Below, one piece after another: positions 1 to 38,297 of a stretch of 64,000 bases of DNA; positions within the stretch are counted from its first letter, which is position 1; each line of letters begins with the position of its first letter. The notes under the pieces are model-generated. The model did no database searches. It was not told where the DNA came from and was given only the letters and a program-made list of their open reading frames with translations. The position numbers and the translations under genes were made by a program. The DNA is from Arenicellales bacterium (GTDB taxonomy: Bacteria > Pseudomonadota > Gammaproteobacteria > Arenicellales > JAJDZL01), in contig OZ243952.1 in NCBI GenBank assembly GCA_965214615.1, positions 2,573,734 through 2,637,733 of the forward strand, given 5' to 3'.

Positions 1-350
1 CATCATCGTCTTCAACTTCAACTGTCGCCGACGATACCGAGCCCACCGTATAGCCATTTCCCGAATCCACGGTCGCGACGACAGTACTATCCGGTTCATC
101 CACAGCATCAGCAACCGTGCTGACACGCAGGGTCCCCGTTCCCGCGTTTTGGCTGCCAGCAACCGGTATGATTACCTGTTTGGATCCGATTCCAGAAGCC
201 GCAGTGACGCTGCCGCTCTCGCCGACTATGACATCTACAGTGAGGTTTGACGCCGGTGCAGGTGTTGCAGTCACTGTGAAACTCGCGTCCGTCCCCTCCG
301 TCGCAGGTGACGTGCCAGGGGCGATTGTGATATTCGGGTTCGCCGGATTG
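1..350 (-). repeat. Super-repeat SR17 (partial: A module only, continues beyond the window)
   Basis: This A module ends ...NGYTVGSVSSATVEVEDDD at 58..2. It is ~92% identical at nucleotide level to the A module of SR15 (1-150 vs 6331-6480). Confidence 0.7.
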
Positions 351-3300
351 TCATTGTCCAGAATAAAGGCGCTCCAGTGAAGAAGACGTGCCGAATCATC
401 AGGCGGCGTACTCGGATCGATCGTAATTTGTTTTTCCCCAGGATCACTTCTTAGCGAGAAGTTGAAAACCTCAGTCGATTCGACTTCATTGTCCTCGGTC
501 GCCGTAAAGGAAACCGACTTTTTTGTTTCTCCGGGAGCGAAAACGGCATCGAATCTAGTTTGCCCATTCTGCAACCTGTAATCGTTGACTTGATGAGCAG
601 ATTTCGTGCCTGGTGGACAAGGTGGAGTATTTAAAAAATCACAAGCATACAGATTAAATTCGAGTTCTTTTTCTGTACTCGCTGCCGGGGTCAAAGTTAT
701 CTCAATAGTTCCGCGCTCACCTTCGGTGACAGTTGGAACCTCAACTTTGAGTTTCCGCAAAGCCGAACCTGTGATGTCGTTCACTGTGACATCGAAACTG
801 TTCATCGAAGCGCTTGCGTGAGGAGCCGCGCCGCTCATTACGTTCGTGCCTAATGTAGGTTCACCGAATGCAGTGGTCGAACCGAGTGCAATCTCGAAGG
901 TCTCCCGATTCGCTCCGTTGCCTTCTGCCGTATTGTCGACTTGCGCCCACAATACCAGGATCGCAGACTGCGCTGCGGCATCTTCAAAACGCACAACCGG
1001 TGTCGAAGTGCTGCTGCCCGAAAGATTGACACCAGTGTTAATCGTCGCTCCGTGTTTTTCCCCCACGACCCAGTCAGCCGTGGTCACGCCAGTGCCGCCG
1101 ATGTCGAGCGGTACATCGACAATCTCACCTGCGGTCAGCTCTCGTGCCAGTGTTACTTTGAACTCAATCGACTGACCCTCATCGATAGCACCTGAGCCTG
1201 TGCGCGACAGGCTCACCACCACCGGGTCTGCGTCCGTTATGGTGCCGGTTGCGCCAAGAGTGACACTGCCACCGTCAAGAGTTGCATTCACAGGAGATGA
1301 AAGCCGGACTTTCACTGTCTCGTCAACGACTTCGTTTATTCCGTCATTCAGGACGGTGATGTCAATGTATTGGGTCGTTTCACCTGCGCCAAAGGTCAGT
1401 GTGCCTGCAGTCAGTGCACTATAGTCAACTCCCTGAGTTGCTGTGCCACCGGAAATCTCAGCATAATCGACAGTCACCTTCTTGCTACTTCGCGGCGCAA
1501 GCGTGACTGTGAACCGCAATGTCGAAGCGGTACCGTTGGTACCTTCGACAACACTCGGATCATCGATGGACAGCACCGGTTCATTATCGTCGTCTGTAAT
1601 TGAGAAGGCCACGGTGCCTGAACCGGCAGCGCCGCCACCGAGATTCGTACCTGAATCGGCATCCAGAGTGCCCAAACCCAGTGTCACCGACTCGTCTACC
1701 TCGTCGATCCTGTCGTTGACTGCTTGAATTGAAAGTGTTGCACGCCCCAAAGCTCCAGCTACGCTGGTAAAAACAATGGTCGGTGGCTGCTTCGCGATGT
1801 CAGCACTCGAAAGATTCTTGTAGCTGACTCCTTTAGGGATGACTGTGTCAAACGTGTAATCAGTACTTAATCGGTAATCTGTGAGGAATTCGGCAGCCCC
1901 TCCAAATATGAGTGGCACCTCCAGCATTTCATCGCCTTTAAGCACACGGCCAAGCTCGACTGTGAAATTCGTTCTTCCACGATTTGTACCGCCTCTCTCG
2001 GTAATTGCGGTTCCAACCGGAGACGAAAGCGTGACCTCGGTCGCATCGCTGTCAACAAGCTCAATACTGTGGCTGGTCGTGGTGCCAAGCTTGGCGTGAG
2101 CATCAGCGCCAAGATCCACGGAAAACGCTTCCACCAGTTCATCATCATTGTCATCAGTGAGTGTGACAATGATGTTCTTACTCACATCATCCTTGCCGAA
2201 AACGAAGCTCGTCATCGTAGTCGCAGTAAAATCACTGCCGCCTATCGCAGTACCGTCAACGGTGGTATAGCTGAGCGTCGCATCCACCAATGTAGTACCG
2301 GTCTTGGCAACGCTAAGCGTCACCGTACCGTCATCTTCGGCTACAGTGGTAGAAGATGTCGAAAATTCAAAACTTGGCACATCATCTGCATCGGTAATGG
2401 TGCCAATGGCTGAACGCGCGCTTGAGTTCAAGCTGAAGTGGGTCGTGCTATCGAGTGTCAAGGTAAGATAATGATCACTCTCGTAGGTTTGGTCATTGGT
2501 CGTCGCAATGCTCACGGTACCGCTTCGCTGACCTTGGGCGATGGTCAGTGTCGCATTGCTAGCCGCTGTATAGTCTGCACTGGTTGCAACCTGATAAGCC
2601 GCATCTGTCGGGTGGCTGCGCCCATCCGATGTCGAATAGACGATGTCCACACCCCCGCTTGGCGCGGCCCCCGGAAGCGTCACAGTGAATTCCACCGCAT
2701 TGCCCTCTGGCGCGCTGGCGGCGGTCACACTGATACCGGCATCATCGTCCAAAATCGGTATGGCAACCGAACCGGTGGCGTTGATTCCGCCCGACAACCC
2801 TGACGAAGAAGGCGCCCGGGCGCTTGTTCCGTAGGCAATGTTCAGCGTGCGAGCCATCTGGTCGCTGTTGTCAACCGCAGTAAATGTCAGTGTCGCAGTC
2901 CTTCCACCTGAACTTGAAAAAATTAAAGCCGGATGCTGGGCGCTGTGCGGGCTTTGCGTATTGAGCGTGACACCGGTGCTGCCATCTGTTAATCCATAGG
3001 TGTAATGTGTGGTTGCCGTTGCACCGGTCACCGCAAGCGGAACTGTCACACTTTCTCCGTCAGCCAATTGTCTTCCAAGCGTCACGGTCACATCTGCCGT
3101 GCCACCGTCCTCGGCTATACCCCCTGAACCTGAACGCGCAAGTGTCACGGTGGTGGCATCGTTGTCTTGAACTTCAACCGTCGCCGAAGGGGGTTCGACC
3201 ACCGTATAGCCGCTTCCTGATTCCACGGTCGCGACGATTGCGCCATCGAGTTCATCAACTTTGTCGCCATCCGTGCTGACAGTCAGCGTCGCTGTGCCCG

Positions 3301-6300
3301 CGTTTTGGCTGGTTGCAGACGGTATGATCACCTGTTTCGACCGGATGCCACCAGCGGGTGTAAAATTTCCTACCTCGCTGACCGCGACATCTACAGTGAG
3401 GTTTGCCGTTGGCGCAGGCGTTGCTGTCACTTGGAAACTCGCATCCGTCCCCTCGGTCACCGGCGACGTGCCAGAAGAAATCGTAATGTAGGGATTCGCC
3501 GGGTTATCATTGTCCAGGATAGCAACATGCCAAAAACGCCAAGGCCTTTCAGCATCATCCGGTGTAATCGCATAATCAGGCGGTGTACTCGGATGGATCT
3601 CTATTTTATTCGAATGTTCAGGGTATTGCAGTATGGCAATATATTCAGTCGATTCGACTAAACTGTCATCGGTCGTCGTAAAGGTGAATGACTGCTTCGT
3701 CTCGCCGGCGGCAAACATGACGAATTGGTACGATTGGTCATATTCTGATATGATGGAATAGTCAGCGCCATATGATGCAGGTTTCGTACCCGGCGGGCAA
3801 GGAGTGTATGAGCCGCAAGATGATCCATCAAATCCAAATATAGTTAGCTCGTCAAACGATCGACTTAAAGTCATTTCAACAGTGCCGCTCCCGCCTTCGA
3901 TAACAACGGCCGGGACATCAACCCTAAGTGTCCGCTTGACCGACCCCGTGATGTCGTTCACCACGACCTCGAAACTGTTCATCGAAGCGCTTGCGTGAGG
4001 AGCAGCGCCGCGCTTTACGTTCGTACCGAATGCAGGATTACCGAATGCAGTGTTCGATCCGAGTGCAACCTTGAAAGTCTCCAGAGTCGTTCCTGCGCCC
4101 TCAGCGGTGTTGTCGACATTTGCCTCGAGAATCAATGTCGCAATCTTGGCTCCTGCGTTTTTAAAACGTATCACCGGTGTCGAAGTGTTCGTGCTTGAGA
4201 GGCTGACACCACTGTTTAATGTCGCACCTGCTTTCTTGCTAAGATTCCAGTCCGCGGTGGTCACGCCCGTGCCACCGATATCAAGTGGCACATCAACTAT
4301 CTCATCTGCAACCAACACCCGGGACAACGTTACCGTGAGCTCTACCGTCTGACCCTCATCTATAGCCCCTGACCCTGACCGCGCCAAACTAACCTCGACC
4401 GGGTCATGGATGATGGTACCGGTTCCGTCAACGGTAACGCCGCCACCATTTAAAGATGCATTCACCGGAGATGAAAGCTGAACTTTCACAGTTTCATCCA
4501 TGAGTTCATGTTGGCCATCATTAAGCACTGTAATGTCAATGTATTTGGTCGTTTCGCCCGCTGCAAAAGTCAGTGTGCCCGCAGTCAGCGCTCTATAGTC
4601 AACTCCTTGCGTTGCCGTTCCACCTGAAGTCTCAGCATAATCCACGGTCACTTGCCGAGAGCTGGCAGCGGAGAGCTCTACCGTGAACCGTAAAGTCGAA
4701 GTAGTCCCGCTCACACCTTCGCCAACGCTCGGAGCGTCGATGGACAGTACCCGCCCGTCATCATCTTCAATTGCGAAGCTCACCATGCCTGATCCGGCGG
4801 CACCGCCGGCGAGGCTGACGTCTGAATTCACAATCAAAGTACCTAAACCGATGGTCACCGACTCTTGCGCTTCGTCGACGGAGTCGTCAATTGCCTTAAG
4901 GCCAAGTATCGCAAGCTTCGATGCTCCAGCCACACCGGAAAAAACGATGGTCGGCGGCTGGTTCACAAGATCAGTACTCGCAAGATTCTTGTAACGCACT
5001 CCTTTTGGAAGCGAAGTGAATCCTTTAAACGCGTAATCAACGGTCAAGCTGTAGTCTTCGCCGAAGACAGCATCGCCTCCAATATCAAGGGGCACCTCGA
5101 TCGTTTCGTCACCTGTCAGTGCGTGGCTAAGCTCGACTGTAAACGTCGTCCTTCCGCCTGTAGTGCTTCCGTCCTCGGTGATTGTGACCCCCGGGGACGA
5201 AAGCGTTACCCCAACCGGATCGTTGTCAGTAATCTCAATGGCGTGACTGGCCATGCTGCCAAGCTTGGCGTGTTCGCCCGCGGTGATATCTACGGTGAAC
5301 GATTCTGTCGGTTCATCGTCAGCATCATCGGTTATAGCCACAGTGATATCCTTGCTCGTATCGTTCTTGCCGAAAACAAGGTCTGTACTCTTGATCAAAG
5401 TGAAATCACTACCGCCCGTCGCGGTTCCGTCAACGGTGATATAGCTGACCGTCGCATCAAGCGGCGTGGCACCGGTCTTTTCGACGGTAAGTGTCAACGT
5501 ACCATCATCTTCTGCTGCATTGGTAGAGCTTGTCGAAAATTCAAAACTTGGCGCATCATCGTCATCGGTAATGGTACCAGTGGCTGAATTCGCATTTTGG
5601 TTTAAGCTGAAGTGATTCGTACTGTTGAGCGTCAACGTAAAATAATGATCGCTCTCGTAGATCTGATCATCTGTCGTTGCAATGCTCACGGTACCGCTTT
5701 GCTCACCTTGGGCGATGGTCAGTGTCGCCCCGCTTGCTGTCGTATAGTCTGAACTAGTCGCACTCTGATAGACCGGGTCTTGCGACTGTGCGCGCCCATC
5801 CGATGTCGAATAGACGATGTCTACACCCCCGCTTGGCGCAGCCTGCGGCAGCGTCACAGTGAATTCCACCGCATTGCCTTCTGGCGCGCTGGCGTCGGTC
5901 ACGCCGACCCCCGCATCATTGTCCAAGATCGATATGGCAACCGAACCGGTGGTGCTGATACCGCCCGATAGCCCAGTCCAAGAAGGTGCCCGGGTGCCTG
6001 TTCCTAAGGCAATGTTTAGCGTGCGTGCCGTCTGGTCGGCGTTATCAACTGCAGTGAATCTCAGTGTCGCGGTCTTTGCACCTGAACTTGAAAAGATTAC
6101 AGCCGGATTCTGAGCACCGTGCGGGCTTTGCGTATCGAGTGTGATACCGGTGCTGCCATCTGTCAATACATAGGTGTAATGCGTGGTTGCCGTTGCACCT
6201 GTCACCGCAAGAGGAACCGTCACACTTTCACCTGCAACCAAATGCCTTCCAAGCGTCACGGTCACATCTGCCGTACCGCCGGCCTCGGCGACCGCACCTG

Positions 6301-9300
6301 AACCTGAACGCGCAAGTGTCACAGTTGTAGCATCATCGTCTTCAACTTCAACTATCGCCGACGATGCCGTACCCACCGTATAGCCATTTCCCGAATCCAC
6401 AGTCGCGACAACAGTACCATCCGGTTCATCCACAGCATCAGCAACCGTGCCGACACTCAGGGTCCCGGTTCCCGCGTTCTGACCTGCAGCCGGTATGACG
6501 ACCTGTTTGGATCCGATTCCAGAAGCCGCAGTGACATTGCCGCTCTCGCCGACTATGACATCTACAATGAGGTTTGACGCCGGTGCAGGTGCTGCAGTCA
6601 CTGTGAAGATCGCATTCGTCCCCTCCGTCACAGGTGACGTGCCAGGGGCGATTGTGATATTCGGGTTCGCCGGGTTGTCATTGTCCAGGATAAAGCCGCT
6701 CCAGTGAAAAAGACGTCCCGAACCATCAGACGGCGTACTCGGATCGATCGTAATTTGTTGACTATCAGGATGATCTTTTAGTGCGAAGTTAAAAACCTCG
6801 GTCAATTCGACTTCATTGTCCTCGGTCGTTGTAAAGGAAATCGATTTTTTTGTTTCTCCAGAAGCGAAGACAGCATCGTATTTATTCATCCCACCTTGTA
6901 GCGTGAAATCGTTGATTTGATGCGCAGAATTTGTGCCTGGTGGACAAGGTCTATGTATGGCATCACAAGCGTATAGAATAAATTCGATTGTTTTTGCTAC
7001 ACTTGCTGCTGGGGTCAAAGTCAACTCAATAGTTCCGCTCTCACCTTCGGTGACAGTCGGCACAACAACGCTGAGCGTTCGTTTCTTGATTTCATTATCT
7101 GTAATTGCGAAACTTAAGGAGCCGGATCCTGACGCACCACCACCGAGATTCGTACCCGAATTCGCATCCAAAGTACCCAAACCAACTATCACCGATTCGT
7201 GCCCCTCGTTTTTTACAGAGTCATCGATAGATCTGATGGCGAGTGTCGTATCCCTCGATGCTTGCGCGACTGCAGTAAAAACAATGGTCGGCGGGCGTTT
7301 TACAGGGTCATTGCTCGAAAGATTCCTGTAGGAAACACCATTGGGATCTTTTATGTTCCCCCCTCCTACCAGGTAATCCCTGTCCAATTTGTAATCCACT
7401 CCAAAGGTAGCATCACCTGAAAAGTTAAGTGGCACCTCAAGCGTTTCATCACCTGCAAGTGCGCGGCCAAGCTGAACTGTAAATATCGCGCTTCCGTCCT
7501 CGGCGATTGCGGCCCCAACCGAGGATGAAAGCGTTACCTCAATCGCATCGTTATCAGCAATCTCAATGGCGTGACTGGTAGTGCTGCCAAGCCTGGCGTG
7601 TTCACCTGCGGCGATATCTACGTTGAACGATTCTGTCGGTTCATCGTCAGCGTCATCGTTTAGAGTCACGGTGATATTCTTGCTCGCATCGCGCTTGCCG
7701 AAAACAAGGTCGGTACTCTTGACCAAAGTGAAATCACTGCCGCTCGTCGCGGATCCGTCAACGGTGATATAGCTAACCGTCGCATCAAGCAGCGTGGCAC
7801 CGATCTTCTTGATGGTGAGCGTCACCGTTCCATCATCTTCGGCTGCAGAGGTAGAGGTTGTCGAAAATTCAAAACTTGGCGCATCATCGTCATCGGTAAT
7901 GGTGCCAGTGGCTGAATTCGCTCTTTGGTTTAGGGAGAATCGACTCGTTCTGTCAAGCGTCAACGTAAAATAATGATCGCTCTCGTAGATCTGATCATCT
8001 GTCGTTGCAATGCTCACGGTACCGCTTCGCTGACCTTGGGCGATGGTCAGTGTCGCACTGCTCGCTGCTGTATAGTCTGCACTGGTTGCAACCTGATAAG
8101 CCGCATCTGTCGACTGTCCGCGGCCATTTGATGTCGAATAGACGATGTCCACACCCCCGATTGGCGCAGCCTGCGGCAGTGTCACAGTGAATTCCACCGC
8201 GTCGCCCTCCGGCGCGCTGGCGTCGGTCACGCTGACCCCCGCATCATTGTCCAAGATCGATATGGCAACCGAACCGGTGGCGCTGATACCGCCCGATAGC
8301 CCAGTCGAAGAAGGTACCCGGGCACCTGTTCCATAGGCAATGTTCAGCGTGCGTGCCGTCCGGTCGCTGTTATCAACTGCAGTGAATCTCAGTGTCGCGG
8401 TCTTTGCACCTGAACTTGAAAAGATGACAGCCGGTTTCTGGGCGCTGTGCGGGCTTTGCGTATTGAGCGTGACACCTGTGCTGCCATCTGTCAATACATA
8501 GGTGTAATGTGTGGTTGCCGTTGCACCTGTCACCGCAAGCGGAACTGTCACACTTTCACCTGCAACCAATTGTCTTCCAAGCGTCACAGTTACATCCGCC
8601 GTTCCGCCGTCCTCGGCAACCGCACCTGAACCTGAACGCGCAAGTGTCACAGTTGTAGCATCATCGTCTTGAACTTCAACTGTCGCCGACGATGCCGTAC
8701 CCACCGTATAGCCACTGCCTGAGTCCACGGTCGCATGGATAGCACCATCCGGCTCATCCACAAAATCATCAACTGTGCTGATAATCAGCGTCGCAGTGCC
8801 CGCGTTGTGGCCGCCTGCCACTGGTATGATTACCTGTTTGGATCTGATCCGTGCTTTAGCGAAATTGCCGGTCTCACTGACTTTCACATCTACAGTAAGA
8901 TTTGTCTCAGGCGCAGGAGTTGCGGTCACCGTGAAGCTCGTATTTGCCCCTTCCGTCACAGATGACATGCCAGGGGCAATAGTGATGTTCGGGTTCGCCG
9001 GGTTATCGACGTCCAAGATAAAGGCGTTCCAGTGAAGAAGACGTCCAGAATCATCAGGCGGCGTACTGGGATCGATCGAAACTCCCTTGTCGTCAGGATT
9101 ATTTCTCAACCTGACGTTAAAAACCTCGGTCGTTTCGACTAAATTGTCGAGGACCGTGGCAATGGAAAACGACTTTTCTGTTTCTCCAGGAGCGAAGACA
9201 GCATCGAACACAGTATTACCACTGCCCTGTAGCCCGTAATCGTTGCCTAAATGCGCAGATTTCGTGCCTGGTGGACAAGGCGGAGTATTTAAGGCATCAC

Positions 9301-12300
9301 AAGGGTATAAACCAAAATTGAGTGTTATTTGTTCACTCGCTGCCGGGCTCAATGTTATTTTAATTGTGCCGCTCTCACCTTCGGTGATAGTCGGCACTTC
9401 AACTTTGAGCATTCGCTTCGTGATGTCATTGACGGTGACATTGAAACTGTTCCTGGCAGCGCTTGTGTGGGGGACAGCACCGCCTGCAACATTGGACTCA
9501 AGTGCATCTGCATTAAATGCCGAATTCGAACCGAGCGAAACCTTGAAGGTTTCTGAATCCGCTCCGCTGCCCTCTGCGGTGTTGTCAACCAGAGTCTCCA
9601 ATACCAGCGTCGCGGTCCACGCTCCCGCCCCCTTGAAACGCACAGTTGGAGACGAGGTGTCGGTGCCGAAAATAGTAATTCCTGTGTTGAAACTTAAACC
9701 TGTTTTTTTGCTCACGGACCAATCAGCCGTAGTCACGCCTGTTCCGCCGATTTCTAGCGGCACATCTATGATCTCACCTGCGACCAACGCCCGAACCAGC
9801 TTTACTGTGAATTCAACCGTCTGACCCTCATCGATGGTGCCTGAACCTGTTCGCGCAAGGCTCACCAAAGTCGGATCATTATCAGTAATGGTGCCTGTGG
9901 CTTCAAGGGTGTCACCTCCGCCTTTGAAAGTCGCATTGACTAAATTTGAAAGCTGTATTGCCACAGTCTCTTCGGTGGGGTCGTCGATGGCATCATCGAC
10001 AACAGTGATATCAATAAATTTGGTCGTCTCACCCACAGCAAAAGTCAGTGTTCCGGCGCTTAGTGCTTCGTAGTCTTGTCCCTGAGTCGCCGTATCGCCG
10101 GCAGTCTCAGAAAAATCGACGGTCACTGCCTCAGCGGCCGTCCCCGCGAGTGTCACCTTAAACTGCATGTTGCCATCCTCGGTAACGCTCGGGTCGTCAA
10201 TGGACAGCACCGGCAATGCATCGTTGTCTCTTATTGTGAAACCTATCTCACCCGAACCGATTGCCCCGCCATCAAGGTTCGTACCCGAATTCCCATCCAA
10301 AGTGCCCAAACCCACTGTGATCGATTCAGTCGACTCAATAAGCAGGTCGTTTTGGATCCACAAAAGCAGAACCGCGCGCTGTGACGCATTCGCCACGCCC
10401 GAAAATTTCACGGTTGGCGGTTTGTTCTTGTGGTCTGCGCTGTCAAGATTCATGAAGCTAACACCCGTATAGGACGATTCGGATAGACTAAGCGTATAGT
10501 CGAGACCGAACGTGGCATCACCTCCAAAAACAAGCGGTACAGCCAATGTCTCATCGCCGGTGAGCGCACGGTTGAGTTCTATCGTCACGGCAAAGCTTCT
10601 TTCCGCTTCCCGCGGTGAGGAGCCATTAAATCTGGATGAGAGCGTTACCTTGGTTGCATCGTTGTCGGTAATCTCGATGCTTTGACTGGACAGGTTGCCA
10701 AGCTTGGCGTGTTCACCTTCGCTGATGTCTACAGTGAACGATTCTGCCGGTTCATCATCGTCATCATCCGCTACAGTCACGGTAATATCCTTGCTCGTAT
10801 CGTCCTTGCCGAAAACAAGGTCTGCACTCCTGATTAAAGTGAAATCGTTACCGCTGCCGCCCGTCGCGGTTCCATCAACGGTGATATAGCTCAGTGTCGC
10901 ATCAAGCAGCGTTGTGCCAGTCTTTTGCACAGTGAGTGTCGCCGTACCATCACCTTCGTCTACAGCGCTGGAAGATGTCGAAAATTCAAAACTTGGCACA
11001 TCACCTTCATCGGTAATGGTACCAATGGCTGAATTCGCACTTTGGTTTAAGCTGAAGTGATTCGTGCTGTCGAGCGTCAACGTAAAATAATGATCACTCT
11101 CATAGGTTTGGTCATTGGTCGTCGCAATACTCACGGTGCCGCTTCGCTGACCTTGGGCGATGGTCAGTGTCGCCCCACTTGCTGTCGTATAGTCTGAACC
11201 ACTCGCACTCTGATAGACCGCGTCTGTCGACTCGCCGCGTCCATCCGATGTCGAATAGACGATGTCCACACCCCCGCCTGGCGCATCCTGCGGAAGTAAT
11301 ACAGTGAATTCCACCGCATTGCCCTCTGACGCGCTTGCGTCAGTCACGCCGATGCCAGCCTCATCGTCGACGATGGGTATGGTGAGCGATCCAGTCGCGC
11401 TAATACCACCGGAAAGCCCAATCGAAGACGGCGCTCGGGCGCCTGTTCCGTAGGCAATGTTCAACGTGCGGGCTGTCTGATCGTTGTTGTCAACTGCAGT
11501 AAATCTCAGTGTCGCGGCCTTCGCACCGGCATCTGAAAAAATGACAGCCGGAATCTGCATACTGTGCGGGTTCTGCGTATTGAGCGTGACGCCGGTACTG
11601 CCATCTGTCAATACATAGGTGTAATGTGTGGCTACCGTTGCACCTGTCACCGCAAGCGGAACTGTCACACTCTCACCGTCGACCAATTCTCTGCCAAGCG
11701 TCACGGTTACATCCACCGTTCCACCGTCCTCGAAAATGCCGCCTGACCCAGTACGCGCAAGTGTCACGGTTGTCACATCGTCATCCAAAACATCAACTGT
11801 CGCCGAGGTTGATGTTCCCAGCGTATATCCGGTACCGGAGTCCAGGGTCGCAAGGATAGCGCTATTGAGTTCGTCGACCGTGTCAGCTATCGTGCTGATG
11901 GTCAGTGTCGCGGTTCCCTCGTTCTGGCTGCCTGCAGCCGGGACAGTCACCTGTCTCGAACCGACACCATCACTGGCAGCAACATTGCCAGACTCGCTGA
12001 CAGAAACATTGACAGTGAGATCTGTCGCCGGCGCAGGTGCCGCTGTCACTGTGAAACCCGCGCCCGTCCCTTCCGTCACAGGTGACGTGCGAGGGGCAAT
12101 GGTGATGTTTGGGTTGTTCGGGTTGTCATTATCCAAAATACGGGCGAGCCAGTACGCTTCTGTCCCATAGGTACCGCCGCTTGTTGGATAAAAACCGTAA
12201 GGCGGTGTATTTGAATCTAAAGTGGCTTCACCGGGAAAGAGCAAACGCAAAGAGATAATAAAAACCTCAGTTGGCTCAACCTCGCTGTCATCGGTTGTCG

Positions 12301-15300
12301 TGAACGCAAACGTCTTGCTCGTCTCGCCCGGGGCGAAAATTAAGGGGCGGGGAGGATAAGATGGCAACTGGAAGTCCTCAAATGATGCTGTACCGACATC
12401 TGGCGGGCAGTCATTCGAATCGGGCCCGGTGCAATTGAGCCTGCCAATGAAGAGACCGATTTCGATACTTCGGCTTGCTGGTTGGCTTAAAGTGAGCTTG
12501 ACTGCACTGCTTTCACCCTCAACAACAGTTGGAGCCTCAACCTTGAGCGTCGGAACAGGCGCTACGGCATCATTTACCTGTAAGTCGAAGCTGTGCAGTG
12601 CAGCATCTGCGTTGCGTCTGGCGCCGCCGCTGACATCCGTACGGCGAGAATCCGAGTCGAATTCCGTGTCTGAACCAAGGTTAAGCGTGAATATTTCGGC
12701 ACCCGCGTCGCCGCCTTCTGCAACATTGTCGATGCTCGTCTGAAGCAAAAGGGTTGCAGTTCTGGCACCCGAACCTTTAAAACGTACCACCTGGTTTCTT
12801 TCATCATAAGCAACTGCGGGCAAGTTGACTCCCAAGTTAATACTCGAACCAGACTTCTTGGACATAGACAAATCGTGCCACCAAAGTCTACCGCCACCAT
12901 TGATGCGCAGCGGCACATCAATAATCTCACCTGCGACCAACTCTCGAGACAGCGTTATTGTAAATTCGATTGACTCACCTTCATCGATGGCGCCCGAACC
13001 CACACGTGCGAGGCTCACCACCGTGGGATCATCGTCAAAGATCTCGACTGTTGCAGAAGCAACACTGCCAGTTGTGTAACCGGTGCCAGGATCTACATTC
13101 GCAATGATGGAGATCCCATGGGGTTTGTCCACCTCGTCGGTCGTCGTGCCAACGGCAAACGACGCTGTTCCTGCGCTGTTCCCCGATGCCGGAATGGTCA
13201 CCTGCCTGGCTCCGGCTTCGCCGTTTACGGCACCGCCGCCGATATCGTTCACCGTGATATCCACTGTGACATTGGAATTTGGCGTCGGTGTCGCTGTCAC
13301 TGTAAATGTCGCAGCCGTCCCTTCAGACACAGGTGACTTGCCAGCGGCAATGCTGATGTTCGGGTTCGCCGGGTTGTCATTGTCATGGATGTCGACATGC
13401 CAGTGAGGAATGCCGTTGTAGGTGCCATCGGAGGGCGTAGTGGAATCGATAACCGCTTCGTTTGACTCAAGGTCAAATATTCGAAACCAAAATCTCTCAG
13501 TCGATTCAATCGCGTTGTCGTCAATTACGCTAAACGAGATCGTCTTCGATGTCTGACCGGGGGCAAAACTCAGCGACACACCAGAAGTGAAGGCACCGGA
13601 AAAATCCTGAAAGCTTGCCGCATTCGAACCTTGGATGGTCGAAGCCCACACTGTAATGCCGATTGGTACGGTTGCCGCCTCACTCAAAGTGAGCTCAATG
13701 GTACCGGTCTCACCCTCGGCGATGGCCGGGATCTTAACGCTGAGCGTGGGTACAGCTGATGCAACATCGTTGACCGTAACATCGAAGCGATTCATCGAGG
13801 CACTCGCATTTGGCTTGGCCCCGCCACCGACATTCGTGCCAAGCGTGTTCGCACCAAACGCCGTGTCTGATCCAAGTGCAATTGTGAAATTTTCCGCACC
13901 GGCTTCACCGCCTTCCGATAGATGGTCGAATCGCGCCTCGAGCACCAAGGTTGCGGTTTTTGCTTTCACGCCTTCGAAACGCACCAATGGAATCGATGTG
14001 TTCGCAGCGGAAAGGCTGACACCGGTATTAAGACCCGAACCAGACTTTGCTGAAAGTCTCCAGTCGGACACAGTCACGCCCGAACCGCCGATATCGAGCG
14101 GAACATCGATAATCTCGCCTGCAATCAGCTCGCGCGCCGCGGTTACGGTGAACTCGACTGTTTCACCCTCTTTAATCGTACCTGTGCCTACCCGAGCGAG
14201 ACTCACCACCGTGGGATCACCATCTACAATCTCGACCGTCGCCGAGGACGCAGTACCCACCGTGTAGCCTGTGCCTGACTTTAGATCTGCGGTAACAGCA
14301 CCACTGATACTGCCAGTGGACTCGTCCACTGCGTCCGCAGCGGTTCCAATAGCCAGTGTTGCCGTACCGGCATTGGCCCCGGTTGCGGGGATGACCACCT
14401 GTTTCGATCCGGTTTGGCCGCTTGCAGCGACATTTTCAACATCGCTGACGCTCAGATTCACGGTGATATTTGCCGCCGGTGCAGGCGTAGCTGTCACCGT
14501 AAAGGATGCGTCCGTCTCCTCCGTTACAGGCGATGCGCCAGGGGCAATAGTAATGCTCGGATTTGCCGGATTATCATTGTCATGAATGCGGACATACCAG
14601 TACGGATTGGATCCGATTGTAAAGCCGTCAGCCGGTGTGTTCGAATCGATTGTCGCTTCGGTGGAATCCAGAGACCCTATCAAAAATTCGAAAATCTCTG
14701 TCGTTTCAGCCGCGTTGTCAGCGGTGGTCGCGAATGAAAGAGATTTGGTTATCTCGGCCGGTGCAAACGTTAGATTGACGGGTATTCGGGAAAAATTACT
14801 GGTAAAGTCCGAGTCATACTGCGCGGCTTCAGTACCTGTTGGGCAAGGCGGTATGGAAGCAGATGTACAAAGAGATTTGACGGCTACAACTTCAAATGGA
14901 ATTGATTTTTCTGCCGGTCGGCTCAAGGTGAGCACAATGGTTCCGCTGTCACCCTCGATCACCGTCGGAATGTCGACCTTGAGTTTCGGCACGGCCAACC
15001 CTTTGATGTCATTGACCTTAATGTCAAAACGGTTCTTCGAAAGTGTCGAATTCGGGTCAGCGCCACCGTCAACATTGGTCCCGAGCGTATTTGCATCGAA
15101 TGCCGCATTCGAACCAAGTGCAATCTCGTAGGTCTCCAGATTCGCTCCACCGCCCTCTGCGGTGTTGTCAACTTTAGCCCCTAATAACAACGTTGCAGTT
15201 TGCGCTCCCGCGCCCGAAAATCGCACAACTGATGACGAAGTGTTGGCCGCTGGCAGACTGACACCTGTGTTTAGGCCCATTGCGGGATTCTCACCCACAA

Positions 15301-18300
15301 ACCAGTCAGCGGCAGTTACGCCTGTACCGCCGATTTCGAGTGGCACATCGATAATCTCACCTGCAAGCAGGGTACGGGACAACGTTACCGTGAACTCAAC
15401 TGTCTGACCCTCATCCATGGCACCTGAGCCTGTTCTCGCCAGAGTTGCAATCGTCGGATCAGCATCAGTAATGGTGCCGGTGCCATCCAGGGTAGCTCCG
15501 CCGCCGGTTAATTTTGCATTGACTGGGTTTGAAAGCTGCACCGCTACAGTCTCATCCGCGGTCTCGTCAATGTCATCGTCGAAAACAGTGATGTCGATGT
15601 GCTGAGTCGTCTCACCCGCACTAAAGGTCAGTGTTCCGGCAGTCAGCGGTTTATAGTCAACTCCTTGGGTTGCCGTTCCACCGGAAATCCCGGCATAATC
15701 GACGGTCACTTCCTTGCCGCCCACCGGGGCAAGTGTGACCGTGTACCGCAATGTCGAAGTAGCGCCGTTTGTACCTTCGGCAACACTGGGAGCATCGATG
15801 GACAGCGCCGGTTCATCATCGTTGTCAACAATTGAAAAGGTCACAGTGCCTGAACCGGCGGCGCCGCCATCAAGGTTCGTGCCTGAATTGGCATCCAGGG
15901 TGGCTAAATCTATTGTCACCGACTCGAGTTCTTCGTCGGATGAGTCGTCAATTGCACGAAGGCCGAGTATCCCAAGCTTCGAAGTTAGAGGCAAGTTGGT
16001 AAAGATGATGGTCGGCGGTTTGTTGACAGGATCATCACTCGCAAGATTCTTGAAGAAAACAACTGGGGAATCACTTGAACCCGAGCTTGCGAAGTTGTAA
16101 TCCGTGGTCAATTCGTAATCACGGCCGAAGACAGCATCACCTGAAAAGACCAGTGGTATCTCAAGCGCTTCATCACCTGTAAGTACACGGCTAAGCTCGA
16201 CTGTAAAATTCGTTCTTCCGCCACTTGTGCCTCCCAGCTCGGTAATTGTGGCTCCAACCGGAGACGAAAGCGTCACCTCAATCGGATCGTTGTCAGTAAT
16301 CTCAATGCTGTGACTAGACAGGTTGCCAAGTTTGGCGTGTTCGTCTGCAGTGATATCTACGGTGAACGATTCTGCCAGTTCATCGTCAGCATCATCAGTA
16401 ACAGTTACAGTGACATCCTTGCTCGTATCGTCTTTAAGGAAAATAAGGTCTGTACTCTTGATCAAAGTGAAATCACTATCGCCCGTCGCAGTTCCGTCAA
16501 CGGTTTTATAGCTGAGCTGAGCATAGAGTAGCGTGGTACCGGTCTTTTCGACGGTGAGCGTCAACGTACCATCATCTTCGGCTGCGACGGCAGAGGATGT
16601 CGAAAATTCAAAACTTGGCACATCATCCTCATCGTTAATGGTGCCAATGGCTGATTTCGCACTTTGGTTTATGCTGAAGTGATTGGTACTGTTGAGTGTC
16701 AACGTAAAATAATGATCGCTCTCGTAGATCTGATCACCTGTCGTCGCAATGCTCACGGTTCCGCTTCGCTGGCCTTGGGCGATGGTGAGCGTCGCACTAC
16801 TCGCCGCCGTATAGTCTGAACTTGTCGCAACCTGATAGGCCGCGTCTGTCGACTCGCCGCGTCCGTCCGATGTCGAATAGACAATGTCCACACCCCCGCC
16901 TGGCGCTGCCTGCGGAAGCGTCACAGTGAATTCCACCGCATTGCCCTCTTGTGCGCCTGCGTCGGTCACACTGATGCCGGCATCATCATTCAAAATCGGT
17001 ATGGCAGCCGAACCGGTGGCATTGATACCGCCCGACAACCCTGACGAAGAAGGCGCCCGGGCGCTTGTTCCGTAGGCAATGTTCAGCGTGCGAGCCATCT
17101 GGTCGCTGTTGTCAACCGCAGTGAATGTCAGTGTCGCGGTCCTTGCACCTGAACTTGAGAAAATCACTGCCGGATTCTGGGCGTTGTGCGGGCTTTGCGT
17201 ATTGAGCGTGACACCGGTGCTGCCATCTGTCAATACATAGGTGTAGTGTGTGGTTGCCGTTGCACCGGTCACCGCAAGCGGAACCGTCACACTTTCCCCC
17301 GCAACCAATTGCCTTCCAAGCGTCACTGTCACATCTGCCGTACCGCCGTCCTCGGCAACCGCACCTGAACCTGAACGCGCAAGCATCACAGTTGTGGCAT
17401 TGTAGTCCTGAACTTCAATGGTCGCCGACGATGTCGCAGTAGCTACCGTATAGCCACTGCCTGAGTTCACGGTCGCGAGGATAGCACCATCCGGCTCATC
17501 CACAGCATCGGCAACTGTGCTGACAATCAGTGTCGCAGTGCCTGCATTGCTGCGACCAGCTGCGGGGACGGTCACTTGCTTGGAACCGATTCCACCGGCC
17601 GCAGTGACATTGCCACTTTCACCGACTGTGACACCGACAGTAAGATTTGTCGTCGGCGCAGGCGTTGCCGTCACTTGAAATCTCGCATCCGCCCCCTCCG
17701 TTACAGGTGAAGCGATAGGGGAAATGGTAATGTTGGGATTCGCCGGGTTGTCATTGTCCAGGATGCGGGCTTGCCAGTGATCACGCACATCCGTAACATC
17801 TGGCGGCGTACTGGGATCGAACGCAACTCCCTTAGAATTGAAGAGATCTATCCAAAGGTCAAAAACCTCAGTCGGTTCGACTGCACTGTCATCGGTGGTC
17901 GTAAAGGAGAGTGACTTTTTCGTCTCACCAGGAGCAAACTTGATATGAAACTCGTTGGGAAACCTGGCGTTAATCTGGCTTGGTTCTGGTTGCATGGTAA
18001 AGTCAACATCGGGTGTCGCAGGTTTCGTACCCGCTGGACACGGGGCTGTGGTACTAATACCGCAAACCCTTACATTGACTATGGGTGCGATTTGCTTATC
18101 CATTGGTCGATTTAAAGTAAATTCAATAGCACCGCTGTCACCCTCGGTGACAGTTGGAACCTCAACTTTCAGCAACGGCAAGGCAGATCTGTCGTTAACC
18201 GTCACATCGAAGCTGTTCAATTCACCAGCCGTGTTCGGGTCTGCACCGCCGCCGACATTGGTGCCAAGTTTGGAATCATCAAATGCAGTGTTCGCACCGA

Positions 18301-21300
18301 GTGCAATCGTGTAAGTCTCCTGATTCGTTCCGCCGCCCTCCGCATGATCGTCGTGTTTCGCCTCCAAAGTCAGCGTCGCAGTCTTAGCTCCGACACCCTC
18401 AAAACGCACCACTGGCGTAGAAGTGGTTTCCCCGTATAGTGTGACACCGGTATTGAGACTCGCGCCAGCCTTCTTGGACAAACCCCAGTCGGCCGGTGTC
18501 ACACCCGCACCGCCAATGTCGAGTGGCACATCAATAATGTCACCGAAAATCAGCGTCCGGGCGAGTGTTACCGTGAACCCAACCGTCTCGCCCTCATTAA
18601 TGGCGCCTGAGTCTGTTCGCGCAAGGCTCACCAAGGTCGGATTACCGTCACTGATTGTGCCTGTGCTGTCCAAAGTTACACCGCCACCTGTCAATGTTGC
18701 ATTGACCGCAGATGAAAGTCGCACTGCTACAGTCTCGTCGATGCTTTCGTCAACGGAATCATCGAGGACGGTAATATCGATGTATTTGATCGTCTCGCCC
18801 GCGGCAAAAGTCAGTGTTCCGGCGCTAAGCGCTTCGTAGTCGACTCCCTGAGTCGCCGTGCCGCCTGAAATTTCGGCGTAGTCGACAGTAACGCTGCGAG
18901 TACTGGCGGGCGTGAGAGTCACCGCAAATCGTAAACTCGCATTACCGCTATCGGCGCCCTCAACAACACTTGGCGAATCAATGGATAGCGTTGGGTAGTC
19001 GTCGTCTGTAATTTCGAAGATCACCGTACCTGAACCGGTTGCGCCGCCGTCGAGGTCCGTGCCCGAACTCGCATTGAGAGTTCCCAGACTGACCGTTAAC
19101 GATTCTGAATCCTCCTCGACAGTATCTTCGATGGGTTCGAGGGCTAGAGAAGCAAGACGTAAGGCACCTGCCACGCCGGTAAAGACAATAGTCGGCGGCT
19201 TATTGACATGATCGGTGCTGGTAAGATTCAAGAATTGAACACCTTTGGGAATCACACTCCCGGAATGCTCTGTAATTTCGGTGCTAAGGGCGTAATCGAT
19301 ACCAAAATCGGCATCACCTCCAAAAGCAAGCGGCACAGCGAGCGTCTCGTCATCCCTGAGAGTGCGACCTAACTCGACTGAAAAAGTGGCTAGTTGACGA
19401 GGAGCCGACTCACCGAAGGACTTATTAGCTGCAGACAGTATCGTGACCTGAGTCGCATCGTTGTCCGTAATTTCGATTGTGCGGCTGGATGTGCTCCCTA
19501 GGCGAGCGTGAGTGCCTGCGATCAGATCCACGGTGAACGTTTCTGTCGGCTCATCATCAGCGTCATCACTGAGACTCACAGTGATGTCCTTGCTGGAATC
19601 ATCCTTGCCAAAAACAAGGTCTGCACGCTTGATGGCGGTGAAGTCAATATCCGACGTTGCGGTTGCGGCGACCGTAGTATAGCTAAGCGTTGCATCCACC
19701 AGCGTTGTGCCAGTCTTTTGCACAGTGAGTGTCGCCGTACCATCACCTTCGTCTACAGCGCTGGAAGATGTCGAAAATTCAAAACTTGGCACATCACCTT
19801 CATCGGTAATGGTACCAATGGCTGAATTCGCACTTTGGTTTAAGCTGAAGTGATTGGTGCTGTCGAGCGTCAACGTAAAAAAATGATCACTCTCGTAGGT
19901 CTGATCATCTGTAGTCGCTATACTCACGGTGCCGCTTCGCTGACCTTGAGCGATGGTCAGTGTTGCCTCGCTTGCCGCCGTATAATCTGAACTTGTCGCA
20001 ACCTGATAGGCCGCATCTGTCGACTCGCCGCGACCGTCCGATGTCGAATAGACAATATCCACACCCCCGCCTGGCGCCGCCTGCGGCAGTGTCACGGTGA
20101 ACTCCACCGCACTGCCCTCCGGCACGCGGGCACCGGTCACACTGATTCCGGCATCGTCGTCGACAATGGGCACGGAGACGGATCCGTGCGTACTGACACC
20201 ATCAGAACCCCTCGAAAATAAAGGTGCCCGGGAACCGGTCCCAAAATTTATGACAATCGTGCGGGCACTTTGGTCGTTATTATCAACTGCGCTAAACGTT
20301 AGCGTTGCAGTGCGTGCATCAGCACCTGAGAACCTCACTGCCGGATCTTGACTGCTGTGCAGGCCGCTCGTTTCAAGATACACGCCGGTGTCATCTTCAC
20401 TGAGGATATAGCTGTAGTGGGTTGTCACCGATGCACCCGTTACTGTAAGCGGCACCGTCACACTTTCCCCCGCAACCAGTGCTCTGCCAAGCGAGACAGT
20501 CACATCAGCCATGCCACCGTCCTCGGCAATGCCACCTGAACCTGTACGCGTGAGTGTGATAGTTGTTGGATCGTCGTCGTCAACCTCAACTGCAGCCAAG
20601 GATGCTGCACTGACCGTATAGCCGGCACCCGAATGCAAACGAGCGGTAATGGTGCTAGTGGACTCGTCCACTGTATCAGCAACGGTGCTGACAGTTAATT
20701 TCGCGGTGCCTGCATTCAGGCTGCCCGAAGCCGGAATTTGCACCTGCTTCGAGCCGGTCGAACTATTTGCTGCGACATTGCCGGTTTCGCTCACCGTGAG
20801 ATTCACGGTAGTATTTACACTAGGTGCCGGTGTTGCAGTCACTGTGAAAGCCGCATTCGTCCCCTCGGTCACCGGTGATGCGTCAGGAGTGATGGTGATG
20901 TTCGGGTTCGCCGGGTTGTCATTGTCCAGAATGCGAACATGCCAATAAAAATCAATATCCGAAAAGTCAGGCGGGGTGCTCGGGTCGATCGTAGCTTCCA
21001 AGTTGTTGGGCATGCCCATGAAAAATAGGAAAACCTCTGTCGATTCAATCGCATTGTCATCAATCGTTGTTAAGGGGATCGACTTTTTCACCTGACCCGG
21101 CTCAAACCTCAGCGTGAAAGTCGATGGTACACCGACAAAGTCGATGTCCAATTCCGCACGTTCAGTACCCGTCGGACACGGAGGGCTGTCAAAAAGATTG
21201 CAAACCCAGAAAATATAATTGATCGTAACAGGCTTGGTCGATGCTCGGCTTAGGGTGAGATCAATCGTACCTTGGTCCCCTTCGGTGACGACCGGCACAT

Positions 21301-24300
21301 CAACCCTGAGCGTCGGTGGAATTATCGCGGCATCATTGACCGTGACATCGAAGCTGTTCCTAGCACCACTTGAATGCGGGTCAGCACCGCCATCGACATT
21401 GGTGCCAAGCGTGCTTGCATCGAACGCTGAATTCGAACCAAGTGAGATCTCGAATATCTCCTGATTCGCCGAGCCGCCTTCTGCAGTATTGTCAATCTGT
21501 GGCTCCAAAACCAGTGTCGCAGTCTCGGATCCAGCATTCGCAAAACGCACTACCGGCGATAAGGAGTTCTCGCCGGAAACAGTAACACCGGTGTTAAACC
21601 CCGTACCGGACTTCGCAACCAGCGACCATTCGGACGCGGTTACGCCCGTACCGCCGATCGTGAGCGGAACATCAATGATCTCATCTGCGATCAACGACCG
21701 GGACAGCGTTACTGTAAATTCAATCGTCTCGCCTTCGTCAATAGCCCCGGATCCTACGCGAGCAAGACTCACCACCGTGGGAGTGTCGTCTTTCATCTCG
21801 ACTTTCGCCGATGATAAAGTGCCCACTGTATAGCCGGTGCCTAAATCAACAGTCGCAACAATAGCACCTGCTTGACCAGGCAACTCGTCCAGCGAGTCGG
21901 CGACAGTGCCAACACTGAGTTGCGCGCTACCTGCGTTAAGACCAGACGCTGGAATGACTACCGACTTTGACCCGGTTTGGCCACTGGCCGCAGAGTTACC
22001 GACATCACTTACAGTAATATCCACCGTGAGGTTCGCTGTTGGCACCGGTGTCGCGGTGACCGTGAAAATCGCAGGCGATCCCTCCGCCACCGACGTGCCG
22101 GGAGCGATGGTGACATTCGGGTTCGCCGGATTGTCGTTGTCCAAAATTCGAATGAACCAGTAGGATTCAGCCGAAACAGTGCCGTCGGGCGGTGTCGTCG
22201 AATCAATTGCCGCTTCGGTAGAATTCAGATTGGCAAGGCGAAACACAATGACTTCAGTCGACTCAATTTCGCTGTCATCAACCGTTGTAAGCGAGTATGT
22301 CTTGAACTTCTCGCCCGGGGCGAACGTCACAGTGGTTGATGACTGAGGCGCATCAGTAGAATAATCCGAGGAATCGCTCGCGTCTTTGGCACCCTGTGGA
22401 CAGGGGATGCCTACAGAGCACCGGCTTGTTGAAAGATCTATGGAAATCGACTGACTTGCCGCCCGGCTCAATGTAAGATCAATGGTGCCGTTCCCACCCT
22501 CGGTGACAGTTGGGACCTCGACCTTGAGCGTCGGTGTCGCCGACCCTATGATGTCATTGACCGCGATGTCGAAACTGTTCATTGCGTCAGTCGTATGCGG
22601 ATCAGCGCCACCACCGACATTGGTACCCAGCGTGCCTGCGTCGAACGCTGCATTCGAACCAAGTGCAATCTCGTAGGTCTCCAGATTCGTTCCACCGCCC
22701 TCGGCAGTGTTATCAATCCTTGCTCCCAATACCAGCGTCGCAATTTCGGCTGCTCCATTTTCAAATCGCACCACAGGTGAGGAAGTGCCGGTGCCAAGTA
22801 GGCTGACACCTGTATTTAGGCCAGTGCCGGGTTTGCGACCTAGAAACCAGTCGCCCGCGGTTACGCCTGTACCACCGATGTTCAGCGGCACATCGATAAT
22901 CTCGGCGGCAATCAGTGCACGGGACAGCGTTACCGTAAACTCAGCCGTCTGCCCCTCGTCAATGGCACCCGAGTCTATTCGCGCAAGACTCACCACTGTC
23001 GGGTCGTTGTCAGTTATAGCGCCGGTGCCGGCAAGTGTGACACCACCGCCGGCAAATGTTGCATTGACTGCATTTGAAAGCCGGACTTTCATCGTCTTGG
23101 TGATTGACTCATCAAGGGCATTGCTGTCAAGAACCATTACATCAATATGTTGTGTTGTCTCACCTGAAGCAAAAGTCAAGGTTCCGGAAGTCAGCGCTGT
23201 GTAGTCGACTCCTTGAGTAGCTGTACCACCGGTAATCTCAGCATAATCGGCAGTCACCTCCTTGCCACTCGCCGGCGTGAGCGTTGCCGTGAACCGCAAA
23301 GTGTTTCCTTCACCGGCACTCGGTGAATCAATGGACAGCGCCGGTTCATCATCGTTGTCTGTTATTGAGAAGGCCACGGTGCCTGAACCGGTCGCGCCGC
23401 CGCCGAGATTCGTACCTGAATTCGCATCCAGAGTGCCCATACCCAGTGTCACCGACTCGTCTGTCTCGTCGAACCTGTCGTTGACAGCTCGTATTGAAAG
23501 CGTTGCACGCCGCGAAGCTCCAACCGGGCCGGTAAATACAATGGTCGGCGGCAGGTTTACAATGTCAGCACTCGAAAGATTCTTGTAGCTGACTCCCTTA
23601 GGGATGAAGTCATCTGCCCCACGTGTGTAATTGGTACTTAATATGTAATCTGTGAGAAATTCGGCAGCCCCTCCAAATATGAGTGGCACCTCCAGCGTTT
23701 CATCGCCTTCGAGCGCACGGCCAAGCTCGACTGTGAAATTCGCTCTTCCGCCACTTGTGCCTCCCATCTCGGTAATTGCGGTTCCAACCGGAGACGTAAG
23801 CGTTACCTCGGTCGCATCGCTGTCGGCAAGCTCAATACTGTGGCTGGTCGTGGTGCCAAGCTTGGCGTGAGCATCAGCGCCAAGATCCACGGAAAACGCT
23901 TCCGCCGGTTCATCATCATTGTCATCAGTGAGTGTGACAATGATGTTCTTGCTCACATCATCCTTACCGAAAATAAACTCCGTCTTCGCAATTGCAACAA
24001 AATCACCGCCGCCTATCGCAGTACCATCAACGGTGGTATAGCTGAGCGTCGCATCCACCAATGTAGTGCCGGTCCTGGCAACGCTAAGCGTCACCGTACC
24101 GTCATCTTCGGCCGCAGTGGTAGAGGATGTCGAAAATTCAAAACTCGGCACATCATCCTCATCGGTAATGGTGCCAACCGCGGAACTCGCGCTTGAGTTC
24201 AAGCTGAAGGGGTTCGCGCTGGCAAGTGTCAAGGTAAGATAATGATCACTCTCGTAGGTTTGGTCATCGCTCGTCGCAATGCTCACGGTGCCGCTTTTTT

Positions 24301-36515: not shown

Positions 36516-37161
36516 TGACGAGGAAGGAGTAAAACGCCCCACATTCATAACGATTTGGACGATCAGTCCGACGACATCGTTCAAAGCGCGCAGGTTTGGC
36601 CAATACCGCCTTTCAGAACGAAGAAACTCAATGCCGGTGATTGATCCGTTATGATCTGTATTATCCGCCTGTGCGTTGAGATTGCGATTCGTAAATGCAC
36701 AATTGCATCCTGCCTCAATGCTGATCCCAAATACTCTGGCCTGTGCTTTTGTGCTGATCGTAACCATCACTGGATTCTTCACCGAGAGTCTTTTGACTCT
36801 CCAACTTAAGGTAGTACGAAAGCAATCGACTTACCGATTGCGAAATATAGTAATTATGTTGAAATATTGTTGAGCAATCTTATTAAAGTGACAAAATCAC
36901 CCCACACCCCAATTGACGGGATTAGTTAAACCTGAGTTTGGCCATTTGTCGTAAAAACGTTGCCGGGCGGACAAGCCACTCCGTAAAGATTAGCTACCTC
37001 TATGGCGTATTCTGACAATGGCGATATGACGCGAACATTTTATAGCGGGCGGGGAGAATTGCCAACCGCTTTTCATGAAATATTTATTACCTTTCCATAT
37101 TCAAAAATCGACTCACGCAAGCATGATTATGCGCAACGGCACCTTACAAAAAGGAGATTCC

Positions 37162-37876: not shown

Positions 37877-37909
37877 ATTGGGGGAAGACCCTGACTTGTA
37901 TCTGTTGCG

Positions 37910-38224: not shown

Positions 38225-38297
38225 TTATTTCAACGTCTTCTGGACCTTGATCTGTCCAAACGAAACAAATTCTCCACTGATCATTGATGCGAATGAA
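38211..38297 (-). pseudogene. higB: higB toxin remnant: only the last 28 codons remain, 5'-truncated at the tRNA
   Basis: The minus-strand translation FIRINDQWRICFVWTDQGPEDVEIIDYH* equals the C-terminus of HigB 'killer protein' family toxins (...INDQWRICFRW..G...DVEIVDYH). The roughly 65 N-terminal codons are missing. The frame runs straight into the CCA end of tRNA-Ala at 38298. Confidence 0.75.

Follow-up and report, generated by a model that had tools for sequence, protein, structure and literature searches.

A divergent Calx-beta module with a cysteine-closed loop, repeated in a giant exported protein of an uncultured gammaproteobacterium

The window analysed here is a stretch of 64,000 nucleotides from contig OZ243952.1 of an Arenicellales bacterium (assembly GCA_965214615.1, positions 2,573,734 to 2,637,733 of the forward strand). 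Its minus strand contains a single uninterrupted frame (window 36544 to 2), which encodes a giant surface protein with 12,181 visible amino acids and a C-terminus beyond the window start. The protein is exported by the Sec route and is composed of 16 super-repeats, each closed by a module designated H. H is a distinct subfamily of the Calx-beta domain, in which a pair of Cys residues closes an additional segment inserted into the loop between strands C and D. The pair probably forms a local intraloop disulfide, by which this accessory C-D loop would be stapled beside a predicted Ca2+ site. The stapled loop is a variant of a known domain family and points to neither a new mechanism nor a new kind of system.

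H modules were located by a phmmer self-scan of the giant protein with one H copy as query, which returned 16 full-length modules (Table 1) accounting for 18% of the visible residues. Consecutive H modules were separated by ~400 amino acids (n = 6), ~1050 amino acids (n = 8) or 778 amino acids (n = 1). The recurrence every 400 or 1050 residues that had been proposed from a first reading of the sequence (hereafter the original prediction) was thus found for 14 intervals and missed one. Cys residues were counted over the complete visible translation. The total was 28 (0.23%), and all 28 were located within H modules, where they were arranged as 14 pairs with one pair per module. Modules of types A to G were free of Cys, as had been expected from partial translations. 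The further statement that the H modules carry the only Cys of the protein was correct for the visible 12,181 amino acids and is limited to these. The probability of placing all 28 Cys within H modules by chance was ~2e-21, and that of placing all of them within two alignment columns ~1e-80. Chance was therefore excluded as the cause of their placement.

All pairs in the window followed the pattern C-x5-7-C-P-[PQEAT]-[GD], with a spacer of seven (n = 10), five (n = 3) or six residues (n = 1). The motif had originally been given as C-x5-9-C-P-[PQAT]-[GD] in 14 of 16 copies. Here, the number of copies was confirmed, but spacers of eight or nine residues did not occur, and Glu was found as an additional residue after the Pro (in H3). 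The seven copies that had been translated by hand were all correct in sequence and coordinates, for example super-repeat SR15 (SSCGSYTPCPPGT, Cys codons 3817-3815 and 3799-3797) and SR16 (Cys codons starting at 643 and 619), and the interval 3506-3950, for which the feature had been recorded, corresponds to module H15. The two copies reported to lack Cys, in SR2 and SR11, are H2 and H11, both of which have a short canonical loop at this site.

Table 1. H modules of the giant protein, with window coordinates, loop sequences and positions of the Cys codons.
Module	Coordinates	Strand	Loop	Cys codons	Spacer	Remark
H1	35159..35605	-	CSQISSSVCPPGV	35485, 35461	7	
H2	33980..34354	-				Cys-less; VVDISGTTTA in place of loop
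H3	32756..33181	-	CSDALAPRCPEDT	33067, 33043	7	CPED from second Cys on
H4	29660..30058	-	CTTSIPCPQGT	29944, 29926	5	Pfam Calx-beta 30.6 bits vs 27
H5	28403..28846	-	CDRFSEEICPPDV	28726, 28702	7	
H6	25280..25693	-	CGTSYTSPCPPGR	25579, 25555	7	
H7	22127..22534	-	CSVGIPCPQGA	22420, 22402	5	
H8	20912..21316	-	CNLFDSPPCPTGT	21202, 21178	7	
H9	17744..18178	-	CGISTTAPCPAGT	18064, 18040	7	
H10	14567..14989	-	CTSASIPPCPTGT	14869, 14845	7	
H11	13370..13750	-				Cys-less; short canonical turn WASTIQGSNAA in place of loop
H12	12119..12553	-	CTGPDSNDCPPDV	12433, 12409	7	
H13	9002..9415	-	CDALNTPPCPPGT	9301, 9277	7	
H14	6671..7081	-	CDAIHRPCPPGT	6967, 6946	6	
H15	3500..3934	-	CGSYTPCPPGT	3817-3815, 3799-3797	5	
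H16	344..757	-	CDFLNTPPCPPGT	643-641, 619-617	7	Modelled copy

For fold assignment, H was compared with known domains by profile searches and by structure prediction. Calx-beta (PF03160) was the sole family matched in a Pfam scan of the giant protein. The match of H was weak and covered only profile positions ~47-103 of 119, i.e. the C-terminal half; as a single module, H4 exceeded the gathering score of 27 bits (Table 1) and H1 reached 21.6 bits. A search of NCBIfam with H yielded sub-threshold NCX hits only, and a profile constructed from all 16 H copies matched NCX1 CBD1 with E = 4e-8. From the 16-copy alignment, H16 was modelled with AlphaFold2 (AF2); the model had a predicted local distance difference test score (pLDDT) of 93.2 and a predicted template modelling score (pTM) of 0.86, and the loop region (residues 39-50) was modelled in blocks of pLDDT 89-93. 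The top matches of this model in the PDB, identified with Foldseek, were NCX1 CBD1 (2dpk) and CALX CBD1/CBD12 with a probability of 1.0 and template modelling scores of 0.6-0.77; CBD2 and the Calx-beta domain of integrin beta4 were further neighbours. Given the confidence of the model and CBD1 as its best PDB neighbour, H is a divergent, CBD1-like Calx-beta sandwich with the seven-strand fold, in agreement with the sandwich that had been suspected from the sequence.

The beta-sandwich is common to H and the CBD1 structures of NCX1 (2dpk, 2fws) and Drosophila CALX (3ead, 3rb7), and the motifs GTA...DY, F.PGE..K and DD...E..E.F as well as the terminal D-x-D are also present in H. In contrast to these domains, H has a Cys-closed C-D insertion of 8-10 residues, and its F-G loop is long and includes the conserved motif ID.sTPpD...W; CBD1 is cytosolic and without a disulfide. 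The insertion is located ahead of the GTA...D(Y/F) motif. In canonical Calx-beta domains two or three residues connect strand C to "GTA", and these are replaced by the Cys-closed segment in H; H2 and H11 retain exactly the canonical short form. In the H16 model, C39 abuts the strand formed by residues 30-38 and C47 is positioned four residues ahead of a mini-strand (51-53). Behind the second Cys come an invariant Pro, the residues x-[GD]-T-x-x-A and finally the conserved D[YF]. Both the 16-copy alignment and the model thereby place the pair so that it closes an insertion immediately ahead of the GT.A...D[YF] / F.PGET.KS..FTT.DD segment, as had been described.

Residues equivalent to Ca2+ ligands were assigned by HMMER alignment, using CBD1 residue numbers derived from the 371-509 construct of 2fws. 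H positions 51-60 were aligned with D413-G-T-A-N-A-G-S-D421-Y422 of CBD1, and positions 88, 89, 93 and 96 with D446, D447, E451 and E454. Together with D421, the latter four residues are established Ca2+ ligands in the CBD1 structure. Invariant in 16/16 H copies were E12, A54, D59, D89, E93, E96, D134 and D136. An acidic set of putative Ca2+ ligands (D59, D89, E93, E96, D134 and D136) is thus conserved, and Ca2+ binding by H is predicted from these alignments. Judged by motif position and by what is known of the CBD1 structure, E12 and the terminal D-N-D of H are probably the counterparts of CBD1 E385 and D498-500. By topology, one tip of the Calx-beta sandwich carries the C-terminus together with the loops A-B, C-D and E-F. 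The stapled loop therefore adjoins the presumed Ca2+ cluster and the junction to the following module, at the inter-domain tip.

A disulfide would require export of the protein to an oxidising compartment. Met19 (36487) is the likely start codon, because an equivalent Met begins an ortholog (P0016). It is immediately followed by MHKFLQFVVLAVLLAVLANTSNASA, a Sec-type signal peptide as judged by eye. N-terminal signal peptides were also read from the sequences of the ortholog and of relatives in metagenome-assembled genomes (MAGs), so that an oxidising environment is indicated for the window protein and its relatives alike.

Conservation of the pair was followed through the window copies, the ortholog and more distant relatives. 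The 16 window copies are old duplicates, with identities of 40-72% in the module alignment and of 36-72% when the loop was excluded. In 14/14 loop-bearing copies, neither the two Cys nor the Pro behind the second one varied. The ortholog was 89.7% identical over 3,971 aligned residues and retained the Cys pair in 5/5 modules, including H5, where 0/7 residues of the loop interior were identical. Nine further H modules were detected in MAGs from at least three phyla, labelled Thalassobaculaceae, Alphaproteobacteria, Dehalococcoidia and Poribacteria (scanned with one genome per species), and two more H-type proteins (P0001 and P0002) in sample ERZ25070917. All eleven relatives had C-x3-5-C-P-[PQ]-[GD] at the equivalent site, and cross-phylum relatives had diverged to ~42-47% identity. 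Among all H-type modules, both Cys were present in 30, none in 3 and a single one in 0 (both plus none: window 14+2, ortholog 5+1; the remainder are the nine MAG loci and P0001 and P0002), and the spacer varied between 3 and 7 residues. The two loop-less window copies were not each other's nearest relatives; H11 was closest to the loop-bearing H4, H10 and H7. Since this separates H2 from H11, the loop and both Cys were probably deleted as one unit, twice independently.

A disulfide between the two Cys is plausible because of their all-or-none co-occurrence, the variable spacer of 3-7 residues on a fixed frame, and the Sec signal peptide. Ring closure over 3-7 intervening residues is sterically possible. 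After export, oxidation would generate one intraloop disulfide per H module, and DsbA-type enzymes should readily oxidise two Cys that are consecutive in sequence. An omega loop of moderate variability would thereby be fixed at its base. The bond would probably serve to keep this exposed additional loop rigid and resistant to proteolysis next to the H-to-A junction, which Ca2+ would stiffen, and the loop might also be presented there as a contact surface.

Several observations weigh against this interpretation. The confidence of AF2 in the loop is no proof of an S-S bond. Further Cys could be present in the C-terminal part of the protein beyond the window. Two H copies do without the loop, which is therefore not essential to the fold. 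Variability of the loop interior exceeded that of the rest of the module only to a moderate degree (entropy 2.44 bits vs a module mean of 1.57, 74th percentile of columns), and the divergence of the ortholog affected whole modules (H1, H2, H5 and the module before each) and not the loop specifically, so that a recognition role of the loop is weakly supported. For the same reasons, a hypervariable loop comparable to a complementarity-determining region was rejected as a description, with moderate support at most. As a separate observation, in the comparison of window 28403-35605 with the ortholog, identity was 97-100% over most of 3,970 amino acids and decreased to 56-72% in the three H modules named and in the module preceding each. 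These local hot spots of divergence or recombination were limited to short (~400 amino acids) super-repeats.

The same data bear on the possibility that the loop is a neutral relic, i.e. that loop and Cys go back to the founding H module and serve no function today. All copies derive from one duplicated module, and two of them lack the loop, as this view would allow. However, the Cys and the following Pro have remained invariant at the low identities found between copies and between relatives, while the loop interior changes freely, and no copy with a single Cys was encountered. This argues for purifying selection on the pair, and we consider a relic improbable.

Alternatively, the pair could form intermolecular disulfides with neighbouring giant proteins or with host matrix proteins, resulting in a mucin-like covalent mesh. 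Fourteen reactive pairs at regular intervals along >12,000 amino acids would suit such a mesh, as would the apparently host-associated community of the relatives (the habitat being deduced). Against it, each Cys has its partner within 3-7 residues and the two are only ever lost together, as expected of mutual partners, and a short consecutive pair would be oxidised locally first. Cross-linking of this kind is accordingly rated as quite improbable, somewhat below the relic.

A binding site for metal or heme was given a similarly low rating. Here, the pair would serve as a thiolate site for a soft metal (Cu, Zn or Cd) or as a site resembling the Cys-Pro heme-regulatory motif, possibly switched by redox state. 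Cys-Pro dipeptides are heme ligands in other proteins, and Pro follows the second Cys in every H-type copy that has the pair (window 14/14, ortholog 5, relatives 11). The loop is also situated beside the conserved acidic ligand set. The spacer, however, comprises 3, 5, 6 or 7 residues, whereas metal sites are normally fixed in spacing, and a fixed-geometry metal site was ruled out on this ground. A third or fourth conserved Cys or His was not found in the H module, no metal-binding family was matched in Pfam or NCBIfam, and the exported protein enters an oxidising compartment. The metal site that had been offered as one option in the original prediction is disfavoured by the variable spacer and by the lack of further conserved ligands, even though the loop does adjoin the Ca2+-ligand set.

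The other option raised at that time, a mechanical clamp, would guard H by its disulfide against forced unfolding in a load-bearing adhesin stalk. The giant protein does have the layout of fibrillar adhesins, with a long tandem array of beta-sandwiches, and clamps made by disulfides are known from other Ig-like domains of adhesins. In the model, however, the bond spans residues 39-47 of 140 and remains within one loop between strands 30-38 and 51-53. It encloses 7-9 of ~140 residues (both Cys included) and joins no force-bearing strands; the terminal strands and the two sheets are left unlinked, and ~130 residues remain extensible. Moreover, the staple is missing from two H copies and from all other module types. 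The clamp was rejected on topology and has very little credibility, the least of the alternatives considered.

To place the stapled loop among known Calx-beta proteins, a profile search of 1.84 billion representatives was performed, which yielded thousands of multi-Calx-beta giants; the best 150 were analysed. In these, the median Cys content was 0.06%, and 47/150 were Cys-free. The motif C-x(n)-C-P-x-[GD] was found among the best 150 only in the ortholog P0016. In the C-D loop of the 1,663 other Calx-beta domains of this set that span the region, no Cys was present in 1,643 cases, one in 17 and two in 3, and a CP[PQ]G motif occurred in none. A protein search with the H profile identified P0001 and P0002 as the only true H-type proteins, the other matches being generic Calx-beta domains without the loop. 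Scanning of JGI metagenomes with a protein pattern yielded no H relatives, and a back-translated TTDD...E.TE.F pattern retrieved only two unrelated loci (L013 and L014) from the same metagenomes. Full-text searches of the literature for Calx-beta in combination with disulfide, cysteine or adhesin retrieved no account of such a loop. As anticipated, no entry for the Cys-closed H loop was found in Pfam, NCBIfam, the PDB or the literature searched, and the CP[PQ]G-framed stapled loop is apparently a rare variant, not described before and specific to this lineage.

A parallel was found in three proteins (P0041, P0043 and P0156; VRYTTCPTTLTDAAVLAACGTLAGTATAGTDY), in which a Cys pair is inserted at the same site, after strand C and before GTA..DY. 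Unlike in H, the spacer is 13 residues, the CP[PQ]G frame is absent, the loop sequence is unrelated and only one copy is present per protein, in the N-terminal domain. Because these unrelated insertions also carry a Cys pair, the C-D loop site evidently tolerates stapled insertions.

Calx-beta repeats build many giant bacterial adhesins and animal adhesion proteins and are normally cysteine-free. Giant Ca2+-dependent bacterial adhesins with Calx-beta-like repeats include BapP of Pseudoalteromonas tunicata and LapA (PMC12153261). Like the window protein, giant multi-Calx-beta adhesins are secreted tandem arrays of Calx-beta/Ig-like sandwiches whose junctions bear acidic Ca2+ motifs; unlike it, they typically contain hardly any Cys or none. 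The conserved, Cys-closed insertion found at the presumed Ca2+-binding tip marks a recognisable Calx-beta subfamily, which can be used for annotation of otherwise unrecognised secreted proteins that are common to distant members of one community. The naturally loop-less H2 and H11 provide a built-in comparison for what the accessory loop adds to a Ca2+-rigidified junction. A purely functional analogy is offered by the D-region of type IV pilins, a disulfide-bonded C-terminal loop with a documented binding role. There, too, a short, variable, Cys-closed loop is borne by a conserved surface-fibre scaffold, but the fold is unrelated, and it is for the pilin loop that binding has been documented.

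The cross-phylum sharing of secreted proteins that begin with H is the more intriguing side observation. In the smaller H-type proteins, H is the first domain behind the signal peptide. The corresponding MAG loci (L003-L011, match at 3001-3400 in each) consist of a signal peptide followed by an H module. DNA identity between their genes was 75-91%, beginning at the start of the gene and in a mosaic pattern. Upstream flanks were related only within one genome and between the members of a 99.7%-identical pair. This combination of similar genes and mostly unrelated flanks suggests horizontal sharing of H-first genes within a single community, which is probably associated with sponges. The 32 kb 'Poribacteria' contig may have been mis-binned. 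Calx-beta proteins are reported to be enriched as "eukaryote-like" proteins in sponge symbionts (PMC11706023), sponge aggregation factors contain Calx-beta domains, and an enrichment of Calx-beta proteins is reported for sponge-associated bacteria (PMC5400394, PMC11670116, PMC11706023). The likeness to these proteins consists in extracellular use of the same domain family. H-type relatives occur in MAGs of sponge-typical lineages such as Poribacteria, and a sponge origin of the window and of the MAGs is presumed.

The sharing across phyla leads to a more far-reaching proposal, namely that the variable stapled C-D loop recognises a ligand or the host, as part of a Ca2+-dependent H adhesion module that is shared horizontally in one host-associated (probably sponge) community. 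We regard it as unlikely, though less so than any of the alternatives discussed above. If true, the H module found in MAGs labelled Gammaproteobacteria, Alphaproteobacteria, Dehalococcoidia and Poribacteria would be circulating among unrelated bacteria, the giant protein would display it 14 times, and the neighbouring Ca2+ site could make binding Ca2+-dependent.

P0001 (184 amino acids) and P0002 (230 amino acids) are short gene calls with a signal peptide, an H module and abrupt ends, which are followed by adjacent open reading frames (ORFs) on the same strand (L002, ERZ25070917 ctg60426_2x, 6,087 bp; L001, 10001-11417). They are probably pieces of larger genes that were split by long-read frameshifts (L002 has 2x coverage) or, alternatively, a pseudogene in a 2.5 Mb circular genome. 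An alphaproteobacterial homologue (L008) has an in-frame tandem RRIAGSPD x3 upstream of its signal peptide (2635-2760), which indicates a short DNA tandem repeat. Modules of types A to G, named as in the original prediction, were mostly without a Pfam match, and the downstream parts of the MAG proteins had only one Pfam Calx-beta hit in 940-1,255 amino acids. Several unannotated domain families are present in the giant protein and in the MAG proteins.

The rest of the window contains housekeeping genes, among them gltX, glnS, sohB and the gene for citrate synthase. The closest named relatives of GltX were from gammaproteobacterial MAGs (60-62% identity), which identifies the host as an uncultured gammaproteobacterium on the basis of its sequence. 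An identical citrate synthase was also present in the ENA metagenome assembly ERZ25070917. The giant gene had a GC content of 0.53, and the housekeeping portion one of 0.55-0.60. A tRNA-Ala(GGC) gene (38298-38373, minus strand) and a 104-amino acid ORF of the HTH_3/Xre type (HigA-like; 37910-38224, minus strand) were located directly upstream of the giant gene. Apart from these two, window 36545-38540 contained ~1.4 kb with unsupported ORFs only, and an assignment of ORF 37334-37876 as Rpn/YhgA-like was dismissed for lack of Pfam support. An island boundary could lie at the tRNA-Ala gene. Further away, a 422-amino acid ORF (window 53733-55001) matched no Pfam family at E <= 1e-5 and was overlapped by a 434-amino acid ORF on the opposite strand. 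An ORF at window 49074-50543 contained multicopper-oxidase domains and a C-terminal cytochrome c domain and resembles a fusion of copper nitrite reductase and cytochrome c.

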